From an uncultured bacterium (GTDB lineage Bacteria > Babelota > Babeliae > Babelales > Babelaceae): a stretch of DNA of 64,000 bases. Shown piece after piece: positions 48,500 to 56,121 of this stretch (positions are counted from its first letter, which is position 1; each line of letters begins with the position of its first letter). A model generated the notes under the pieces. The model was not told the DNA's origin and ran no database searches. It saw nothing but the letters and a program-made list of their open reading frames with translations. A program made the position numbers and the translations under genes. The DNA lies in contig CAVQCM010000002.1 of the NCBI GenBank assembly GCA_963711045.1, positions 12,218 through 76,217 of the forward strand, written 5' to 3'.

Positions 48500-50197
48500 T
48501 TATGGGTGTCGCTGATCTTCTATGCGGGCGATTTGTTCAAGCAATCGATGTGCTAGGGATATGGCATGTCGTGAGGTGTTTGCATGTTCAAGAAGAATCA
48601 CTAATGTTCTTGGTTTATAGTGTTTATACTGGAATCGTGCAGCAAAGTACCCGTGGGGGAGATCTTTTTTTGAGGATGTCTTGTTTGTACACGAGCGAAC
48701 TTGGGCGGTCCCTGATTTTCCTTGGATGGTAAATCCTGAAAGCCTGTTAAGAAGCGTACCGGTTCCTTTTTTAATTACAGAAGTGAGGCATTGCTGTAAA
48801 AAAGATAGTGTTGCTGGGCGTAATTGGACGAGTTCCTTTATAACCGGTTCTTCTACTAACATTCGTGGACGTACCTTAGAGCCAGTTCCTACGGCGCAGA
48901 TCATACAGGCTAATTGAAGGGGGGTAACGAGTAAGGAGCTTTGCCCAATGACTGCTGAAAGTGTTTCTCCAGGCCACCACGGCTCATTGCGTGCTTTTTG
49001 TTTCCATGAGCTGGTGGGCACCAGCCCTTTTTGTTCCGGAAAAAAGATGCCAGTTTTTACGCCAAGTCCTAATGCATGGGCATACTCAGCGAGGGTATCA
49101 ATGGGCATTTTTGTGCCAATATCATAAAAAGGAACATTGCAGGACTGAGCAAATGCTTTCTTGGTGTTAATGATGCCATGGCCCCATCGTCTATTGCAAT
49201 GATAGTTTCGGCCCTTAAAGTTCAGTGCTCCTTTACAGCGCCACTCGGTATCTGGGGTAATCATAGACGTCTCTAATGCCGCAGCAAGGGTCACCAGTTT
49301 AAATAAGGAAGCAGGAGGATAACAGGCGCTAAATGCTCGATTGATAAATCCATTATTTTGCTGGAGCAAGCGCCATTGTTCATGAGTTAATGGTTGCAAA
49401 AATATCCCTGGCGAAAAGCATGGTCGAGAGAGAACTACTTCAAGGGCTCCGTCATCATCCATAAGGAGGAGGCATCCTTCATATTCCTTAGGAAAGAGCT
49501 TTTCTGCAATTTGTTGAAGCTGAAGGTCAAGAGTTGTTTTAATAGTAGTGCCCATAGTCGGGCGTGTCACCTTATGCGTTGTTAATTTTCTGCCGAGTGA
49601 ATTGATAATCTTAATGATGGTACCTGCTTGTCCGGTAAGTTTTTTATTATAGAGGCGCTCAAGACCCATTTTACCGAGAGCATCTTTCATACCAAGGTAA
49701 CCCACAATATGGCTGGCAAGAGTATCATGAGGGTAGTACCGTTCATAAGTTGTATGTATGAGAAGATTCTTATTATGAGGTAGCTGTTCAACAAGTTTGG
49801 TAAGTTGTTCATAGGGCATATCGTCGCTCAGAAGGAGCTGTTTACCAGTTCGCTCAATCTGGGCAATATGGATAAGAACGTCTGGTTCTAAAGAAAAGAT
49901 AAGAGATAATCGGGTAAGGATAGCTTCTTGCTGAGTACTAAGATGATAATTGCCTGTGCCTTGCCAGTACAAGCTATATACTGGTCGATTAGTAGCAAGA
50001 AGCTTGTTATATTGGTCGGTGATATTTCCTCGTGGAGATTCTACCTGTTCTTGCCTGAAAAAGTTTCTCCTGCTCAATTGAGAAAAAAGGGTGCTTTGCG
50101 CTATTTGTAGATTAAAGAGGTACCCACCAAGGGTACAAAACGCTACAAGTACCACAGCTAGAAGATGGATCAGCCGTTTGCTAATAGGGAAATGCAT
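48500..50197 (-). CDS. mrdA: penicillin-binding protein 2 (class B transpeptidase)
   Basis: 565 aa with an N-terminal TM. SxxK (ASLFK), SxN (QSCN) and KSG(T) (GKSGTAQ) motifs in the correct order. Confidence 0.85.
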   Translation of the reverse strand: MHFPISKRLIHLLAVVLVAFCTLGGYLFNLQIAQSTLFSQLSRRNFFRQEQVESPRGNITDQYNKLLATNRPVYSLYWQGTGNYHLSTQQEAILTRLSLIFSLEPDVLIHIAQIERTGKQLLLSDDMPYEQLTKLVEQLPHNKNLLIHTTYERYYPHDTLASHIVGYLGMKDALGKMGLERLYNKKLTGQAGTIIKIINSLGRKLTTHKVTRPTMGTTIKTTLDLQLQQIAEKLFPKEYEGCLLLMDDDGALEVVLSRPCFSPGIFLQPLTHEQWRLLQQNNGFINRAFSACYPPASLFKLVTLAAALETSMITPDTEWRCKGALNFKGRNYHCNRRWGHGIINTKKAFAQSCNVPFYDIGTKMPIDTLAEYAHALGLGVKTGIFFPEQKGLVPTSSWKQKARNEPWWPGETLSAVIGQSSLLVTPLQLACMICAVGTGSKVRPRMLVEEPVIKELVQLRPATLSFLQQCLTSVIKKGTGTLLNRLSGFTIQGKSGTAQVRSCTNKTSSKKDLPHGYFAARFQYKHYKPRTLVILLEHANTSRHAISLAHRLLEQIARIEDQRHP

Positions 50198-50204
50198 GCC
50201 AGTC

Positions 50205-52925
50205 CTATTTAAGGTTATATTCTTGACAACGTCTATTTACAGAAGATCTATTAACCCCAAGGAGTGTGGCTATTTTTGATTGATTCTTAAATTTAGCCCA
50301 CAATAATCCCATAATTTGAGGATCTTTAAGGGCTTTTTTACCCATACGAACTGCTTGGGCAATATCAGGATCACTTACATTATAGGCAACATCAAATTTT
50401 GTCACTTCAGAAATCTTATGTTTAGAAGATTTCTGCACGAGAAGTTGGTGAACCCGCTCTTTAAACTCATGCAAACTAAAGGGTCGCTCATCATAGAGTT
50501 TCGTTTTATCTTTATCAGTTAGTGAAAGAAGATTTTTATAGGTATCTTCAGTAATGATCTGATCAGCATATCCTTGTGCAAGAGTGGTGACTTCCTTTTC
50601 TGAAAGATCTTGCAGTGAGGGCATTACGAGGGATGTTTGCTCTAACTCGTTATACAGCTCTTTTGAGAATTTGTCTTCATTAATGAGTTGCAGAAGATTT
50701 CTTCTTGTAGAGCAGATGATGCGTACGTTACTAAAGACCTTATGGTCACTCTTGAGGCGATGAAAGAACCCGAAGGAAATAAATTCAGCAAGATATTCTT
50801 GCGTTTCTCTACTGAGATTTTCAACATTTTGAATAAAAAGGGTCCCCACATTATCAAGCTTCTCAAGAAGAGGAAGCGCCGCATCTTTTTGTATAAGAGG
50901 ATTAAGACCAAAGAGGGTTACTGCTACTTCATCAGTTTTTTCTGGTGACGTCAGCTTAATAGTATGCAGTGATTGTCGCAAGCTAATGTCATGAAGTACT
51001 TCAACGGTGGGCATGAGGTCATTATCTGGTATATTAATAAGCGTTGCTTTTTTGGTTAGCGCCGTTCTGAGAAGATTAATTTTAAAGTTAAGCAATTTTT
51101 CACTATCTCCTGGAATCATTTGATTAATGAGACGTCCAGATTGTGTTGTTTCAAGGTAGAGCATATAGTCCCAATCTGAAGGGTCTTTAAGTTGCTCAAA
51201 ATGCGTTTTAATGACATCCGATACTTCAGGATAATGCACAAGAAGAATGGTAGAACGTTCTTCTAGGCTTGGTATACCAGTGATAATAAGTTTATTGCCT
51301 TCTGTATCATGAGCAAAGTTAGTTTGTGAGGTCTTATATTCTTGCACGCGGCGTGCCACTTTTCTCATTGCTTGAGTGAGCGGATGCCCTTCATTCATAT
51401 TAGGATCCATGCCGATCAAGATTTGTGCGGCTTCATTTGCAATAGTGAAGCGTCGGTATTTATAAAAGAGGATACCTACTTTTCGTTCTTTTGATCGCAT
51501 GAACGAGCGAATACTTTCCTTGTATTGGTTAATTTCTTGATGTTTGTTATAGAGTTCTTCAGTGAGTTGCTTATGCCGCTGATGGAGTGCTTCAAGGTTT
51601 GAATATTTAAGAATATTAATGACATTACTCAGGTAGGTAGTAAACACGAGCATTTCATCACGCTCTTTATTGGTGTAGAGGCTGCTTGGTCGGGCGTCTT
51701 TTTCTACAATGATATAGGCTGATATATCATTTCGCTCAAAAATTGGTACAAAGATATCAGCATTGATGTGATCAAGAAATCGTAGTGCTTCTCCACTTAA
51801 GACGTCCTCTTCATAAAAGTATGAGAAATGAATATCATCTCTAATAAAGAGTTTCATTTCCCGCAGAGATCGTGTTAAGGTTTCATTTTCATGCTTACCG
51901 ATATACTGTTCAACTTTAGCGGTCGTATTTGCGATGTCATAGTAGCTGTGATCTTCTTGGTCAGTTTCTGCTTTACGTACGTAGAGGCGAACTCTTCCAA
52001 TAGGAATATGAAATGCTGTGTTAAAGAATTGCTGGGTATGCTGAGCAAGTTCTTTAAGGGCCGTTGCATAGCTTAATTGCTCTAAGATGTCTCTAAACTG
52101 GGAGAGAAAATTGAACTTTTCTTTTGAGCTAACAGTCTTCCGAATATTAAGAAAGCGCAACCCCATAATTTTTAGGGCAATAAAGTATAAGATACTCGTA
52201 GAAGCTACTGTTCCTAAAGCACCTATGAGTGCTCGGTAGGTTTTAAAGTAGGAAATTACTTTTGCAAGTGAGTTAACTGAAATACTCATTAACTCGGTGC
52301 TAAAGACAAAGAAAATAAAGAAAATAAGGTACCATGATTGGTGAACAAGAATGCGTGGTACTTTTTCTTTTCTGAAACGGAGCACAATAACCATCATGGT
52401 GGAAATAGTCAAAAATATTACATAGTATCTAATGACCGAGACTAAGAAGGATTCAAAGGGAAGTGTGCCAGAACTTTCTGAAGAAATATCATATTTAAAT
52501 ATGGCCAAGTAGAGAAAACTAAGAGAAATCGCGATATTAACAAATCCATGAAGTATTGTTGTAGGCGTAAGCATTATACGTTTTGTATAAAAGTATTCTA
52601 AGCTTGCAATTAATGCTTGAAACTGAGTGAGATAAAAAATCCAGGTGATTCTATGAAATATGGTAAAAGCAACAAACTCCTCTCTGCGCTTTAGTATCCC
52701 CCATAAAATAAGTTCAAGAACATGTTGTACGTCGATAAGCAAGGTAGAAACTAGATAAATAGAGAGCAGAATAAATGCTTTTCTTGATCGCTTAGAGGTA
52801 ATAATGAAATGTACACATATGCCAAAAAAGAAGAGCTTAACAAGTATGCAGGTAATATGTATCAAGGAGATTACATAGTAGTTCCTGGCTGCTAAATGAA
52901 GGACGTTGCTAACTTCTTCTATCAT
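50205..52925 (-). CDS. membrane-anchored GAF/PAS-like regulator with degenerate sigma-54-activator AAA+ module and Fis-type HTH (paralog A)
   Basis: 906 aa with about 7 hydrophobic segments in the first 250 aa. C-terminal HTH_8-like IATLLGVNRSSVNRRCQEYNL. The central region aligns by eye to the Sigma54_activat domain (TLFGLN / GTLFIQNVENLS / VRIICSTRRNL / KELYNEL) but lacks GxxGxGK, the DE pair and GAFTGA. Confidence 0.7.
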   Translation of the reverse strand: MIEEVSNVLHLAARNYYVISLIHITCILVKLFFFGICVHFIITSKRSRKAFILLSIYLVSTLLIDVQHVLELILWGILKRREEFVAFTIFHRITWIFYLTQFQALIASLEYFYTKRIMLTPTTILHGFVNIAISLSFLYLAIFKYDISSESSGTLPFESFLVSVIRYYVIFLTISTMMVIVLRFRKEKVPRILVHQSWYLIFFIFFVFSTELMSISVNSLAKVISYFKTYRALIGALGTVASTSILYFIALKIMGLRFLNIRKTVSSKEKFNFLSQFRDILEQLSYATALKELAQHTQQFFNTAFHIPIGRVRLYVRKAETDQEDHSYYDIANTTAKVEQYIGKHENETLTRSLREMKLFIRDDIHFSYFYEEDVLSGEALRFLDHINADIFVPIFERNDISAYIIVEKDARPSSLYTNKERDEMLVFTTYLSNVINILKYSNLEALHQRHKQLTEELYNKHQEINQYKESIRSFMRSKERKVGILFYKYRRFTIANEAAQILIGMDPNMNEGHPLTQAMRKVARRVQEYKTSQTNFAHDTEGNKLIITGIPSLEERSTILLVHYPEVSDVIKTHFEQLKDPSDWDYMLYLETTQSGRLINQMIPGDSEKLLNFKINLLRTALTKKATLINIPDNDLMPTVEVLHDISLRQSLHTIKLTSPEKTDEVAVTLFGLNPLIQKDAALPLLEKLDNVGTLFIQNVENLSRETQEYLAEFISFGFFHRLKSDHKVFSNVRIICSTRRNLLQLINEDKFSKELYNELEQTSLVMPSLQDLSEKEVTTLAQGYADQIITEDTYKNLLSLTDKDKTKLYDERPFSLHEFKERVHQLLVQKSSKHKISEVTKFDVAYNVSDPDIAQAVRMGKKALKDPQIMGLLWAKFKNQSKIATLLGVNRSSVNRRCQEYNLK

Positions 52926-52929
52926 TTTG

Positions 52930-52957
52930 TTGACATCTTTTTTTTGTCTTATATACT
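52930..52957 (+). promoter_or_regulatory. candidate promoter for the small plus-strand ORF
   Basis: TTGACA, 16 nt spacer, TATACT. About 107 nt upstream of the ATG at 53065. Confidence 0.35.
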
Positions 52958-53064
52958 TTGGCTTGACAGTGAAAAGTGTAAAGCTAAGTGAAGTAATTTG
53001 TCAAATTAAATTGAAATTTGTAGTGTAGTGGTTGACAGTTTAATATACTTCTGAAGGAGTACCA

Positions 53065-53220
53065 ATGAAACATTTATTGTTAGGCTCTTGTGCTTTTATG
53101 CTTACTGTTACAATAGTGAGTACGCTTGAAGCACAAGTTTTACCACAAGACGCAAAGCCTGTCGTCCAGGAAATGCCCGATAGTGGCCCTCCCTATAATG
53201 GCTATGGTTGGGATGACTAA
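53065..53220 (+). CDS. unannotated small secreted peptide (51 aa)
   Basis: An AAGGAG Shine-Dalgarno sequence lies 5 nt before the ATG. MKHLLLGSCAFMLTVTIVSTLEA|QVLPQDAKPVVQEMPDSGPPYNGYGWDD*. A strong terminator follows 15 nt after the stop. Below the 60-aa cut-off of the ORF track. Confidence 0.55.
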   Translation: MKHLLLGSCAFMLTVTIVSTLEAQVLPQDAKPVVQEMPDSGPPYNGYGWDD

Positions 53221-53235
53221 TTTCTAACAAAGTTA

Positions 53236-53268
53236 GCGACCTATGCGAAAGCATAGGTCGCTTTTTTT
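53236..53268. terminator. intrinsic terminator (small ORF; also directly follows the stop of paralog B on the other strand)
   Basis: GCGACCTATGC-gaaa-GCATAGGTCGC followed by T7. The T-run overlaps the TAA of the 53267-55960 gene. Confidence 0.7.
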
Positions 53269-55960
53269 ATGTCAGCTTATATTCCTGACATCTTCTATTG
53301 ACCGATGATCTATTGACCCCTAAGAGTTGTGCGATTTTATTCTGGTTTTTAAAGCGATGCCATAAGAGTGCCATAAGATGAGGATCTCTCAGCGCTTTTC
53401 TGCCAAGGCGAACGGCTTGAGCAATATCTGGGTCACTGATTAAGTAGGCAGGATCGAAGGTAGTATGTTTGGATATTTGGTGTTTATAGGTCTTTTCTTT
53501 CACGAGTTGTTCAACCCGCGTTTTTAATTCATGGATACTTAAGGGAGTATCTTGTATAAGCTGTAGCGTATCTCTTTCTGATAATGACAAGAGATGCTTA
53601 AAGGTATCATTTTGTATAAGCTGATCCGCAAACCCTTGCGCGAGACAGGTGATATCTTCTTCTTGTAAGGTTGGCATAGAGATGCAAGTTGATTCAAGTT
53701 GTTGATAGAGCTCCTTACAGAAACTACCTTCTTCAACAAGGGCCGCTAGCTGCTTAGTTGTTGAGCAGATGATACGTGCTCTACTTGAGATATTCTTATC
53801 ACTTTTTAGTGGCTTGAAATACCCAAACGTGAGATAATGAGCTAACGCGCTTTGTGTTTCTGCACTTAGGTATTCAATATTTTCTATAAAGAGCGTGCCA
53901 TGCTCATCAAGCTGTTCAAGAAGCCCTTCAGATTGGTCGATAAGTTTATTAATGCCAAAAAGTGAGCGTGCAACTTCGTCAGATTGTTCTTTACCAGTAA
54001 GCTCAATGCGGTGAAGCGTTGTTCTTAAGCTAATAGCATGGAGGACATCAACGGTTGCCTGAAGGTCATCAGGTGGAAGCGTAAGAAGGAGGGTTTTTTT
54101 GCTTAATGCTGCCGATAAGAGGGAAATTTTTAAGCGCATAAGCTGTTCTGTAGTGCCGGGTATTAATGAACTAATGAGTCTTCCTGAGGTTGTTGTTTCG
54201 AGGTATAGGGCATAATCCCAGGTTGAGGGATCAGGAAGATGTTCAATATGATTTTTTACCATATCAGAAAGTTCGGGGTAATACAACAATATAATGCTTG
54301 ATGACCCATCCATATTGGGTAGGCCTGATACAACAAGTTTTTTCCCTTGCAGCTCAATAGATGTTGTTTGTGCTGTTCTAAATTCTTGTACCCGTTTTGC
54401 AACTGAGGTACACGCTTTACTTAATGGATGACCTACATGGGTATTCATATCATGAGGAATAAAATCATGTGCTGCTTCGTTAGCATAGGTAAACTTTCTA
54501 TTTTTATAATAAACGATGCCGATACGGCGACTTTCTGAAGAGCGCATATAAGAGCGAAGGACTTCTTTATATTGATTAATTTCTTGATGTTTGTGATAGA
54601 GCTCTTCGGTAAGCTCTTTTTTTTCAAGCTGAAGCGCTGCAAAACTGCTTTGCTTGACGAGACTGATAATATTACTTAAGTAGGTAGTGAAGACAATCAT
54701 TTCGTCACGCTCTTTACTCGTATAAAGGCTTCTGGGACGGGCATCTTGTTCAACAATGCAGTAGGCAATGATTGAAGATCGTTCATAGATTGGTAAAAAG
54801 ATATCTGCATGGATGCTATCTAAAAAAGCGACTATTTCATGGGCGTTACTGTTTTCTTCATAAAATGAAGTAAAGTGATAATCATCTCTAATGAGTATTT
54901 TAGCTTGATAGAGTTCATTGGTCAGTACCGATTCTTTTTCTATGAATTTTTCTATCAGATCGGCTTTTCCATTTTGTTTAAAAGAGAACATACCACTGGT
55001 GTCTTGCTTGGTGCGTAACATGAGGTGTGTCTTTCCACGAGTAATATTAAAAGCAGTGGAAAAAAATGTCTGTGTAATATGAGTGAGTTCATTTAATCCG
55101 GTGGTATAGCTGAGCTGTTCAAGAATATCTTTAAATTTTCGTAGGAAATTGAACTGTTCAGATGAGGTAATATCTTTTCTGATATTTAAAAATCGCAATT
55201 GCATGATTTTGGTACTAAGGAAGTACAAACTAATGGTCGTGAAGATCCCAATAATAACTTCAAGTGAAGGTTTAGTGAACGGAATAAAAGGAAATGATAG
55301 GTGATACTCAATACAGATGCGCATACCAAGAGAGAGCACTTGAAAAGGAATAATAAATTTGGCGAGCATGCTAATCTGCCGGTATAAGATGCGTGGCAGC
55401 CTTTGTGAACGTAGCGCATTAATAATATGCCATAAAATCCAGATACACATACAGGCGGCATAACTATAGATGAAGGTAACGATCTTCCATTCAAAGCCGA
55501 GTGTTTGACTACTATCTGAAGGGATACCATAATAGCCAATAATAAGATATAAAAAACTGCCGATACTAATGACGCCAGCGGCACCATTAAGAAGCCAAAA
55601 CCATGAAAATTTAAGGCGGCGATAGAGTAAATAGTAAAAAAAGAGGGCAAGCGACTGTATTCGTGGAAGATAAACTATCCAATTGATACGCGCAGCAAAA
55701 GTATGAATGAATAGTTCACCCTTTAGCTTTAGGCACCCACGAAGGAGACCAGCAATTAGATATTCAAGATCATTACATGCTGCTGTTACTACAAATATCA
55801 AGAGCAAAAGAAGGGGTAGTCGATCTTTTTCACGAGTAACAAGATACCAACAAAGAAAACATGCTATGATAAGCTTTGCTACCAAGGCACCAGTAAGAGC
55901 GGCAACGGCCACGACAGGATGTGATAAAATAGCTACGAGTACCGTTAAAGGGTTTTGCAT
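53267..55960 (-). CDS. membrane-anchored GAF/PAS-like regulator with degenerate sigma-54-activator AAA+ module and Fis-type HTH (paralog B)
   Basis: 897 aa, colinear with paralog A. Shared blocks: LRFLNIRK, FRDILEQLSY / FKDILEQLSY, ERDEM(L/I)VFTTYLSN, HQEINQYKE, GTLFIENIEYLS, RIICST, LLGVNRSSVNRRCQEY. Confidence 0.7.
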   Translation of the reverse strand: MQNPLTVLVAILSHPVVAVAALTGALVAKLIIACFLCWYLVTREKDRLPLLLLLIFVVTAACNDLEYLIAGLLRGCLKLKGELFIHTFAARINWIVYLPRIQSLALFFYYLLYRRLKFSWFWLLNGAAGVISIGSFLYLIIGYYGIPSDSSQTLGFEWKIVTFIYSYAACMCIWILWHIINALRSQRLPRILYRQISMLAKFIIPFQVLSLGMRICIEYHLSFPFIPFTKPSLEVIIGIFTTISLYFLSTKIMQLRFLNIRKDITSSEQFNFLRKFKDILEQLSYTTGLNELTHITQTFFSTAFNITRGKTHLMLRTKQDTSGMFSFKQNGKADLIEKFIEKESVLTNELYQAKILIRDDYHFTSFYEENSNAHEIVAFLDSIHADIFLPIYERSSIIAYCIVEQDARPRSLYTSKERDEMIVFTTYLSNIISLVKQSSFAALQLEKKELTEELYHKHQEINQYKEVLRSYMRSSESRRIGIVYYKNRKFTYANEAAHDFIPHDMNTHVGHPLSKACTSVAKRVQEFRTAQTTSIELQGKKLVVSGLPNMDGSSSIILLYYPELSDMVKNHIEHLPDPSTWDYALYLETTTSGRLISSLIPGTTEQLMRLKISLLSAALSKKTLLLTLPPDDLQATVDVLHAISLRTTLHRIELTGKEQSDEVARSLFGINKLIDQSEGLLEQLDEHGTLFIENIEYLSAETQSALAHYLTFGYFKPLKSDKNISSRARIICSTTKQLAALVEEGSFCKELYQQLESTCISMPTLQEEDITCLAQGFADQLIQNDTFKHLLSLSERDTLQLIQDTPLSIHELKTRVEQLVKEKTYKHQISKHTTFDPAYLISDPDIAQAVRLGRKALRDPHLMALLWHRFKNQNKIAQLLGVNRSSVNRRCQEYKLT

Positions 55961-56036
55961 AGCACTATCTCCGGTGATTTATTTTCTCTAGTTGAAAGAG
56001 TAGTGTATGAATATTTTTAGCACTGCTTGTATTTTT

Positions 56037-56064
56037 AATATAGCAAAACATCTCATATTGTCAA
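56037..56064 (-). promoter_or_regulatory. candidate promoter of paralog B
   Basis: On the minus strand, TTGACA, 16 nt spacer, TATATT. About 75 nt upstream of the ATG at 55960. Confidence 0.4.
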
Positions 56065-56121
56065 ATGTTGTGCTGGTAAAACCATTGCACTTTTTTATTA
56101 TCATGATAGAGTGATGATACA

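Follow-up and report, generated by a model that had tools for sequence, protein, structure and literature searches.

In the SHP/Rgg and ComS/ComR systems of streptococci, which belong to the RRNPP superfamily, a peptide gene of 20-35 codons is transcribed divergently from a regulator gene, and its product combines a basic N-terminus, a hydrophobic core and an extreme C-terminus that carries the informative residues. A comparable arrangement is described here in the Dependentiae (TM6), widespread parasites of protists that have hardly been cultivated and in which very few regulators can be recognised. The window, that is, the whole stretch of 64,000 nt that was analysed (contig CAVQCM010000002.1 of assembly GCA_963711045.1, from an uncultured member of the Babelaceae), contains at positions 53065-53220 a small open reading frame (sORF) of 51 codons, located between the genes of two paralogous membrane regulators. 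The analysis indicates that this sORF is a gene belonging to a family of tiny Pro-Pro peptides, found across the order next to a divergent regulator of ~900 aa with seven transmembrane helices (7TM).

The likeness to SHP/Rgg goes beyond gene orientation. In both cases the pair of peptide and regulator duplicates as a unit, and the SHPs are released by a protease of the RseP family, a homologue of which is encoded in the present genome. Rgg, however, is a soluble cytoplasmic protein made of a helix-turn-helix (HTH) and a TPR domain, and its peptide is re-imported by Opp, whereas the regulator described here joins a Fis-type HTH to a 7TM domain and a dead AAA+ module. The bearer is in this instance a diderm intracellular parasite, the peptide is characterized by a Pro-Pro motif and has no sequence similarity to the SHPs, and a membrane receptor would need no import of its ligand.

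A second group of systems, AgrD-AgrC, CSP-ComD and ComX-ComP, relies on an exported peptide and on a polytopic bundle of 6-8 transmembrane helices whose external loops are very short. In these systems the peptide diversifies along with its receptor into specificity groups, to be compared with the D/E-x-PP and R-aromatic-PP classes described below. Their receptors are nevertheless histidine kinases acting with a separate response regulator, and their operons also encode dedicated proteins for the maturation or export of the peptide. In the present case, the 7TM domain and the DNA-binding output are directly fused in one protein, and the locus has no linked maturation gene. A third likeness concerns MgrB-PhoQ and SafA-PhoQ, in which a peptide of less than 50 residues adopts a single-pass N-in/C-out topology with a short periplasmic tail; the peptide described here would likewise act on the membrane or periplasmic part of a sensor and form a feedback loop. 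MgrB differs in being encoded away from phoQ, in acting on a histidine kinase and in needing periplasmic cysteines, whereas the present peptide gene is fixed beside a one-component regulator, its key motif is PP and it matches no small-protein family of Pfam. The arrangement works most like SHP/Rgg and also resembles Agr/Com and MgrB-PhoQ, and it is a member of none of these systems, since the adjacent regulator has neither a TPR domain nor a histidine kinase.

In the literature, no published description was found of this pairing, nor of sigma-54-type regulators or small peptides in Dependentiae, and quorum-sensing mechanisms are stated to be absent in a Dependentiae genome paper (PMC6561590). 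The micro-gene itself is absent from the public gene calls and from the family libraries that were searched.

Structure and signals of the small gene

The positions of the sORF, of its signals and of the two flanking regulator genes in the window are the following.

53065-53220, plus strand: sORF of 51 codons, an elongated form within the Dependentiae Pro-Pro micropeptide family (reading frame, profile and linkage)
53054-53059, plus strand: Shine-Dalgarno sequence AAGGAG, 5 nt before the ATG of the sORF
52930-52957, plus strand: sigma-70-type promoter of the sORF, TTGACA-16-TATACT (11 of 12 consensus positions)
53235-53269, plus strand: intrinsic terminator of the sORF (hairpin at 53235-53262, with a 12-bp stem, a GAAA loop and a run of seven T)
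50205-52925, minus strand: regulator of 906 aa, paralog A, divergent partner of the sORF (7TM, AAA+ remnant and Fis-type HTH)
53267-55960, minus strand: regulator of 897 aa, paralog B, convergent with the sORF and with no intact Pro-Pro peptide gene upstream

The sORF extends from an ATG at 53065 to a TAA at 53218-53220 and encodes a product of 51 aa (MKHLLLGSCAFMLTVTIVSTLEAQVLPQDAKPVVQEMPDSGPPYNGYGWDD). Only seven codons are open upstream of this ATG, which is therefore the sole plausible start. The reading frame, the AAGGAG sequence and the promoter described in the initial annotation, which had been made from the letters alone, are all present in the sequence. The context of the Shine-Dalgarno sequence, AAGGAGTAGCAATG, is kept across the same-genus copies of the sORF. 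Promoter-like matches are not enriched in this AT-rich region (3 found versus 3.2 expected); the match assigned to the sORF is credible because an equivalent promoter occupies the equivalent place in about 50 other genomes. The strong hairpin proposed as terminator was confirmed as well, with a stem of 12 bp instead of 11 and a start located 14 nt, and not 15 nt, past the stop codon. Its stem comprises seven G-C pairs and its folding energy of -23 kcal/mol (z = -6.8) was reached by none of 200 shuffled sequences. The same hairpin also faces the 3' end of the 897-aa gene, without a T-run on that side. The sORF thus lies between a divergent neighbor, the 906-aa gene, from which it is separated by a spacer of 139 nt, and a convergent one, the 897-aa gene. 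Equipped with a promoter, a ribosome-binding site and a terminator of its own, and belonging to a conserved family with codon-aware divergence, the 51-codon reading frame is a real gene, as had been claimed, independently transcribed and part of a codon-constrained family.

Relatives in the same genus

The DNA surrounding the regulator genes was examined in nine genomes of the same genus, the window genome having a size of 1.78 Mb and a completeness of 96%. In all nine, between one and three tandem small ORFs of 40-51 codons are found beside the regulator gene, on the opposite strand; MAKYFFSACAVLSMMLCVFSVVSAQGHQTQKKIEVPLGGGPPWIIGR and MAKLFSMLAVIAMLVCSVNDVQANAKAKKDVHGAPHGLPPY are two examples of their products. 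These peptides share a common build, in which M-[AT]-K precedes a hydrophobic stretch of about 15 residues; an (A/G)-(Q/K/N) junction then leads into a short polar tail, which ends in PP[YWF], PFPF, PPPG or PIPP. Most copies carry their own hairpin terminator and, at the loci inspected in G001, G005 and G002, each copy is preceded by a TTGAC[AT]-16-TAGAAT promoter. When the same-genus genomes were searched with a profile, all the strong hits adjoined regulator genes and none was found elsewhere. The one exception is a copy of G009, which is located just downstream of its regulator and was inspected on that side only.

A hidden Markov model (HMM) built in a leave-one-out manner, from the peptides of the relatives only, gave the window ORF, at E 0.094, the first rank among the 17,417 small ORFs that the genome contains, and the odds of this top match falling by chance on the syntenic spot are about 1 in 10^4. 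The tblastn comparison advocated in the initial annotation gave no direct match: among 40 relatives, the 51-aa peptide returned only noise (E at least 0.019), and homology can be recognised only by position, architecture and profile. No candidate relative of the window peptide was found either in a collection of 5.8 billion proteins or in a scan of metagenome contigs.

The codon-aware substitution pattern put forward in the same annotation as a mark of a coding sequence is seen between the copies of the relatives. In the orthologous three-copy arrays of G001 and G005, substitution amounts to 0.089, 0.024 and 0.097 at codon positions 1, 2 and 3, with a value of 0.086 in the spacers, and no indel is observed over 372 coding nt, whereas several are present in the spacers. 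Over 12 pairs of paralogs or orthologs, which are not all independent, 66, 41 and 111 differences were counted by codon position, and the ratio of synonymous to non-synonymous codon changes is 88 : 91. Both length differences between same-genus copies correspond to whole codons. Taken as a whole, the divergence within the genus has the appearance of a moderately constrained coding sequence.

The evolution of the unit formed by peptide and regulator can be followed in some of these genomes. Two identical copies of a 46-aa member (..CDMFIPGPPWNH) are separated by 8.2 kb in G004 (locus L034, 423-563 and 8620-8760); the regulator next to one of them is intact, whereas only a fragment adjoins the other. 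This arrangement suggests that the segment carrying the unit was duplicated recently. Regulator pseudogenes with a peptide gene still adjacent were also found at G003:C3:1133556-1136262, with 29 stops, and at G002:C2:690774-693196. Regulator copies turn over quickly in the genus of the window.

An order-wide family of Pro-Pro micropeptides

The ~900-aa 7TM regulator is present in 164 of the 230 Dependentiae genomes sampled. Seventy regulator upstream regions, originating from 69 genomes, 55 genera and 8 families, were scanned for a divergent ORF of 18-70 codons starting at most 300 nt from the regulator ATG and encoding a hydrophobic helix as well as a PP within the last seven residues. Such an ORF was detected in 60 of the 70 regions, at a start distance whose mode is about 80 nt. 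Applied to the regulator-sense strand and to shuffled sequence, the same criterion retained 1 of 70 and 5 of 1400 cases, respectively. Several of the ten regions left aside contain longer-tailed variants. The Dependentiae Pro-Pro micropeptide family is defined operationally in this work, by position, architecture, motif and profile.

Typical products from other genera are MKKQLFSLITALVVIGSILLDTPPFS, MKFSIVKLSGLLITLVIIIASVAPPAS and MKFMTVLLGLVTFLGIFPPV. Among 68 pooled peptides, K or R is found within the first 12 residues in 65, and the last PP is followed by 1-3 residues in 63. The residues preceding PP are most often [DE] and then F, L, G or W, as exemplified by ..TDGPPSGT and ..LDGPPVDA. 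On this evidence, the ancestral product would be a very small peptide that spans the membrane once, in the N-in/C-out orientation, and is capped by Pro-Pro. In several lineages the PP unit is repeated two to three times per precursor, for example as 3 x D[DE]FPPMG in G018, and this repetition within one precursor designates the PP unit as the functional element. Precursors with repeated PP units behind one helix are encoded at L053 (G018), L058 (G020), L118 (G156), L020 (G027), L112 (G069) and L114 (G058); the sequence ..GQDDFPPMGIRSDDFPPMGCHDDEFPPMG, taken from this set, looks like a multi-copy propeptide.

Regulator paralogs, gene order and duplication

According to hydropathy and to the distribution of K and R residues, both paralogs of the window possess about seven N-terminal transmembrane helices with an N-out/C-in orientation and short periplasmic loops. 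As the bundle has only such short loops on its periplasmic side, the surface of the membrane is where any ligand would have to act. AlphaFold2 folds residues 1-340 into a seven-helix bundle (pLDDT 77, pTM 0.68). In a fold search with this 7TM domain nothing matched at E <= 0.001, the best hits (E 3e-3, TM-score ~0.5) being generic bundles of the G-protein-coupled receptor (GPCR) type.

In the remainder of the protein, the Pfam and NCBIfam matches are confined to the Fis-type HTH (HTH_8) and, within the NtrC-type sigma-54 interaction domain, to its C-terminal half. The N-terminal AAA+ half, where Walker A and GAFTGA would be expected, matches no profile, and all the scores are far below the family cut-offs. 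Walker B reads GTLFIQNVENLS versus GTLFLDEIGELS in NtrC1, which amounts to a replacement of DE by QN. In addition, no sigma-54 gene (rpoN, PF04552) was found in the 96%-complete genome, with a search to which control genomes respond. Because Walker B has been lost and no sigma-54 gene was found, the two regulators are not ordinary enhancer-binding proteins. Their best NCBIfam matches include TyrR, NtrX, DhaR and PspF. The sigma-54-independent proteins TyrR, NtrX and R. capsulatus NtrC are indeed comparable in their NtrC-type AAA+ lineage and Fis-type HTH, to which the absence of a detected sigma-54 can be added; they differ from the present regulators, which have an N-terminal 7TM domain and a Walker B altered from DE to QN.

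The ancestral gene order consists of nth, the peptide gene on the same strand as nth, one or more divergent regulator genes and mrdA. In the window, mrdA (PBP2) is located 7 nt downstream of paralog A. The adjacency of regulator and mrdA, already noticed in this stretch (48500-52925), turned out to be kept across the order (L009, L010, L012, L019, L020, L039 and L047), nth being on the opposite side, and a connection of the regulator with the growth of the cell wall is possible.

The sORF had been presented as a peptide gene wedged between two paralogs. Its association with a membrane regulator is borne out, but the conserved unit is the divergent pair of peptide and regulator, represented here by the 906-aa paralog, and the sORF adjoins the end of the 897-aa paralog because the regulator has been duplicated. 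Tandem regulators are also found in family f21, in which a second peptide gene was detected in 9 of 17 newly examined inter-regulator spacers (L121-L137). The peptide of the second regulator is of the R-[FYWM]-PP-x-x class (..LLRYPPNA, ..LFRFPPQG, ..IIRMPPSY) and that of the first regulator is of the acidic D/E-x-PP class (..DEFPPNR, ..GEFPPRG), which suggests that these peptides form two specificity groups. Regulator and peptide duplicate and diverge as pairs, in the manner of cognate partners, the examples sharing ancestry and representing few independent events.

Of the two regulators of the window, paralog A, the downstream one, alone retains a peptide gene. The spacer of 161 nt between paralog B and nth, in which other genera keep the peptide gene, contains an ORF of 35 codons without PP (56007-56114, plus strand; MNIFSTACIFNIAKHLILSNVVLVKPLHFFIIMIE). 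The DNA of this ORF (AGCACTGCTTGTATT..TTGTCAAATG) is conserved in G001 and G005, without conservation of the frame, which leaves two readings, a peptide gene that has decayed or promoter/operator DNA.

A shared control region

Two further elements are located in the leader that separates the promoter of the sORF from its ATG.

52975-53004, minus strand: candidate promoter of paralog A, TTGACA-18-TACACT, inside the sORF leader (consensus match only, 10 of 12 positions)
53024-53033, plus strand: leader element TGTAGTGGTT, about 35-45 nt before the ATG (conserved at the genus level)

In 50 of the 60 loci, the spacer contains a sigma-70-type peptide promoter matching at least 9 of 12 positions, with the consensus tTaTTGat.TT-N13-tTATAcT. 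The -35 box of this promoter is found 3-7 nt from the regulator start codon in 35 of the 60 loci, with a modal distance of 6 nt; in the window, where the box lies at 52930 and the regulator ATG at 52925, the distance is 4 nt. Since the -35 box of the peptide gene fills the bases preceding the ATG, the regulator genes are left without room for a Shine-Dalgarno sequence. At 52926-52929 in the window and at the equivalent positions of L051-L120, no regulator Shine-Dalgarno sequence is seen, and the peptide genes have a strong AGGAG. If the candidate promoter of paralog A is real, the peptide and regulator promoters of the window must interdigitate. The two genes share one compact control region of about 80-140 nt.

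The leader has a length of about 100 nt in the window and in its genus, versus a norm of 30-50 nt. The leader element TGTAGTGGTT precedes nearly all of the 22 same-genus copies of the sORF, and the conserved TGTAGTGG lies 35-45 nt upstream of their ATG. No conserved RNA structure or riboswitch was detected in this 100-nt leader with RNAalifold (0.0 kcal/mol on the same-genus copies), and no Rfam family was found at the locus at gathering score. Two other explanations of the element were rejected. As a regulon-wide operator, TGTAGTGGTT should have been frequent, and it was counted 4 times in the genome versus 4.8 expected, and it is likewise not enriched in the window. A sigma-54 promoter (GG-N10-GC) around TGTAGTGG, looked for by eye, has a spacing that does not fit, in a genome without detected rpoN.

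Proposed topology and processing of the peptide

Two parts can be distinguished in the 51-aa product.

53065-53133, plus strand: residues 1-23, with a basic N-terminus, a hydrophobic segment and T-L-E-A before Q24 (candidate signal peptide or membrane anchor)
53179-53196, plus strand: core motif D39-S-G-P-P-Y44, with the acidic-x-PP-x signature (alignment A1 of the same-genus peptides and context of the other genera)

The N-terminus, K2/H3 followed by LLLGSCAFMLTVTIVSTL, corresponds to the basic start and the single hydrophobic helix of the Pro-Pro family. In alignment A1, the second Pro of PP is the only invariant column besides Met1, and an A/G-Q junction is common to most copies. The DSGPPY motif of the window peptide is followed by eight residues after PP (..NGYGWDD), versus the 1-3 residues of the family norm. 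The closest tails are ..RDEPPWDGLGY (G012) and ..GPFGPPYGKPS (G023), and the long-tailed intermediates of the same family-level group comprise these two forms as well as G048 (..EGFPPPTE) and G006 (..GPPWIIGR). The window tail ..DSGPPYNGYGWDD appears to group with the long-tailed forms of G012, G023 and G048.

A signal peptide cleaved at TLEA|Q had been proposed. Such a cleavage is plausible. The candidate signal peptidase I site has a K2 n-region and Ala23 at -1, but Leu21 at -3, where a small residue is expected, and its h-region of about 17 residues is long (7-15 expected). It does not apply to the ancestral form, whose N-terminus would be a single membrane helix: in the short members of the family, xPPxx-stop directly follows the helix and therefore leaves no room for a signal-peptidase site. 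A tail of 15-30 residues, together with an (A/G)-Q junction fitting the -3/-1 rule, is found only in this genus and in some relatives of the family. The genome encodes an RseP-type protease and three signal peptidase I (S26) enzymes, whose genes are arranged in tandem outside the window (G000:C4:6151-9249). Three tandem genes of this type are an unusual number for a 1.8-Mb genome.

Other types of small peptide were considered. A lipoprotein (L-G-S-C9) was rejected by inspection, the Cys being too near the N-terminus for a lipobox, and so was the precursor of a ribosomally synthesized and post-translationally modified peptide, as the neighborhood contains no maturase gene. The window peptide matched no Pfam family and, in NCBIfam, only NprX (E 0.18, residues 1-18, versus a cut-off of 75 bits), a match that reflects merely its signal-peptide-like N-terminus. 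The Rap-Phr, PlcR-PapR and NprR-NprX systems do present a likeness, namely a Sec-type signal peptide followed by a short pro-region and an active C-terminal end, to be compared with the 40-51-aa forms of the genus. They are distinct in having the peptide gene downstream of, and on the same strand as, the receptor gene, in using cytoplasmic TPR proteins as receptors and in being restricted to Bacillota.

The genome is also rich in small exported proteins. Tandem families of Cys-rich secreted peptides of 48-79 aa, of a size that escapes annotation and with strong Shine-Dalgarno sequences, are located outside the window at G000:C4:583204-584595, G000:C2:137785-138877 and G000:C2:9118-9569. One of them, present in four copies, is exemplified by MKHYIIIALLSFATVGAMKAE...

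Proposed function and alternatives

The exported or membrane peptide may well be a ligand or a partner of the adjacent 7TM regulator, a proposal that we regard as evenly balanced. Its hydrophobic segment would carry the peptide into or across the inner membrane in the N-in/C-out orientation, with the Pro-Pro tail facing the periplasm. In the genus of the window, signal peptidase I would probably cut after Ala23 and give a periplasmic peptide of 28 residues containing DSGPPY; this cleavage is considered probable because the tail has been lengthened and the (A/G)-Q junction has appeared. The peptide would then act on the periplasmic face of the seven-helix domain as a ligand, a co-sensor or a feedback modulator, and the DNA-binding end of the regulator would control the shared divergent promoter region, closing an autoregulatory loop. 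The gene signals, the conservation of the family, its linkage to the regulator and the promoter architecture are shown directly, whereas export, cleavage, regulator binding and feedback are steps that we infer from comparative genomics.

Several observations weigh against this proposal. Gene linkage is no proof of a physical interaction, and the peptide could be the output of the regulator and not its input. About half of the second tandem regulators, as well as paralog B, are without a peptide gene of their own. For the 7TM domain, nothing significant came out of the fold search (best E 3e-3, generic GPCR bundles). The window peptide is itself atypical, with eight residues past PP where the family norm is 1-3, and with a leader of 100 nt where the norm is 30-50 nt. 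Its cleavage was judged by the -3/-1 rule alone, and the Leu at -3 is not ideal. The E-value of the leave-one-out HMM is just 0.094, and the ratio of non-synonymous to synonymous substitution rates of the window ORF is not measurable on its own, because no close relative exists among the proteins and metagenome contigs that were searched.

The alternative that survives best, possible but on balance doubtful, is that the peptide is indeed the output: the regulator would sense another envelope cue and drive a small effector, directed to the envelope or to the host, without feedback. Regulators often adjoin their own targets; this one is syntenic with mrdA (PBP2), and the order nth-peptide-regulator-mrdA is conserved. 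The near-consensus promoter and the strong Shine-Dalgarno sequence are those of an abundant product, although a sigma-70 promoter so close to the consensus needs no activator. Tandem arrays of 2-3 copies raise the dosage in the genus, and many other small secreted peptides are encoded in the genome. The two peptide classes nevertheless follow the two regulator paralogs, a better fit to cognate recognition than to a generic effector, and a peptide of 20-27 residues that is nearly all helix leaves little room for an independent effector function.

A cis-acting ORF is very improbable. It supposes that a ribosome pause at Pro-Pro, sensitive to EF-P or to the proline supply, tunes the overlapping regulator promoter or, elsewhere, nth, the peptide being functionless. 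This would account for the only strictly conserved sequence feature of the family, PP followed by G, A or V near the stop, but not for the basic N-terminus and the membrane-length helix kept in 65 of 68 peptides, neither of which is needed by a stalling leader. The PP is moreover never formed by the last two residues in these 68 peptides, and PP units are repeated within one precursor. The peptide and regulator promoters do overlap in a spacer of about 80 nt; attenuation, however, cannot couple divergent genes. EF-P is present in the genome, and nth is downstream on the peptide strand in single-regulator genomes, whereas the strong terminators found in the window and its genus imply that no gene is controlled in cis. 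The arrest peptides SecM, MifM, VemP and ApdA also combine an N-terminal export or membrane segment with a C-terminal proline-containing motif. They are however long enough for the N-terminus to exit the stalled ribosome, and they control a downstream gene on the same mRNA; here the helix abuts PP and the transcript ends at the terminator.

A chance ORF, or a non-coding small RNA with an incidental frame, is hardly credible: even though neither tblastn nor the protein collection yields a detectable homologue of the window peptide and consensus promoter matches are not enriched in the AT-rich spacer, the ORF tops the leave-one-out profile, an ORF of the same build occupies the same place across 55 genera despite complete nucleotide divergence, the divergence is codon-periodic with whole-codon indels, the Shine-Dalgarno context is conserved, and neither an Rfam family at threshold nor a conserved RNA structure was found.

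Significance for the Dependentiae

The locus illustrates how a conserved coding sequence can be lost below the 60-codon limit of annotation. The window displays a derived form of the system, with a long-tailed and probably cleavable peptide, and a duplicated pair of regulators that have only one peptide gene between them. If the peptide is the ligand or partner of the adjacent regulator, the pair would constitute a new cassette design, in which a membrane one-component receptor with a dead AAA+ module is associated with its peptide outside Bacillota.

The peptide-regulator pair is probably a central control circuit of the phylum. A more ambitious and unlikely extension is that of a phylum-wide peptide-sensing switch in a phylum reported to lack quorum sensing, in which a Pro-Pro micropeptide would be read at the surface of the membrane by a GPCR-like seven-helix bundle fused directly to a DNA-binding output, a one-component peptide receptor and transcription factor, and would have become, in the genus of the window, a tandemly amplified diffusible pheromone released by signal peptidase. 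Should this be true, these intracellular parasites could count themselves or sense their confinement in the host vacuole.

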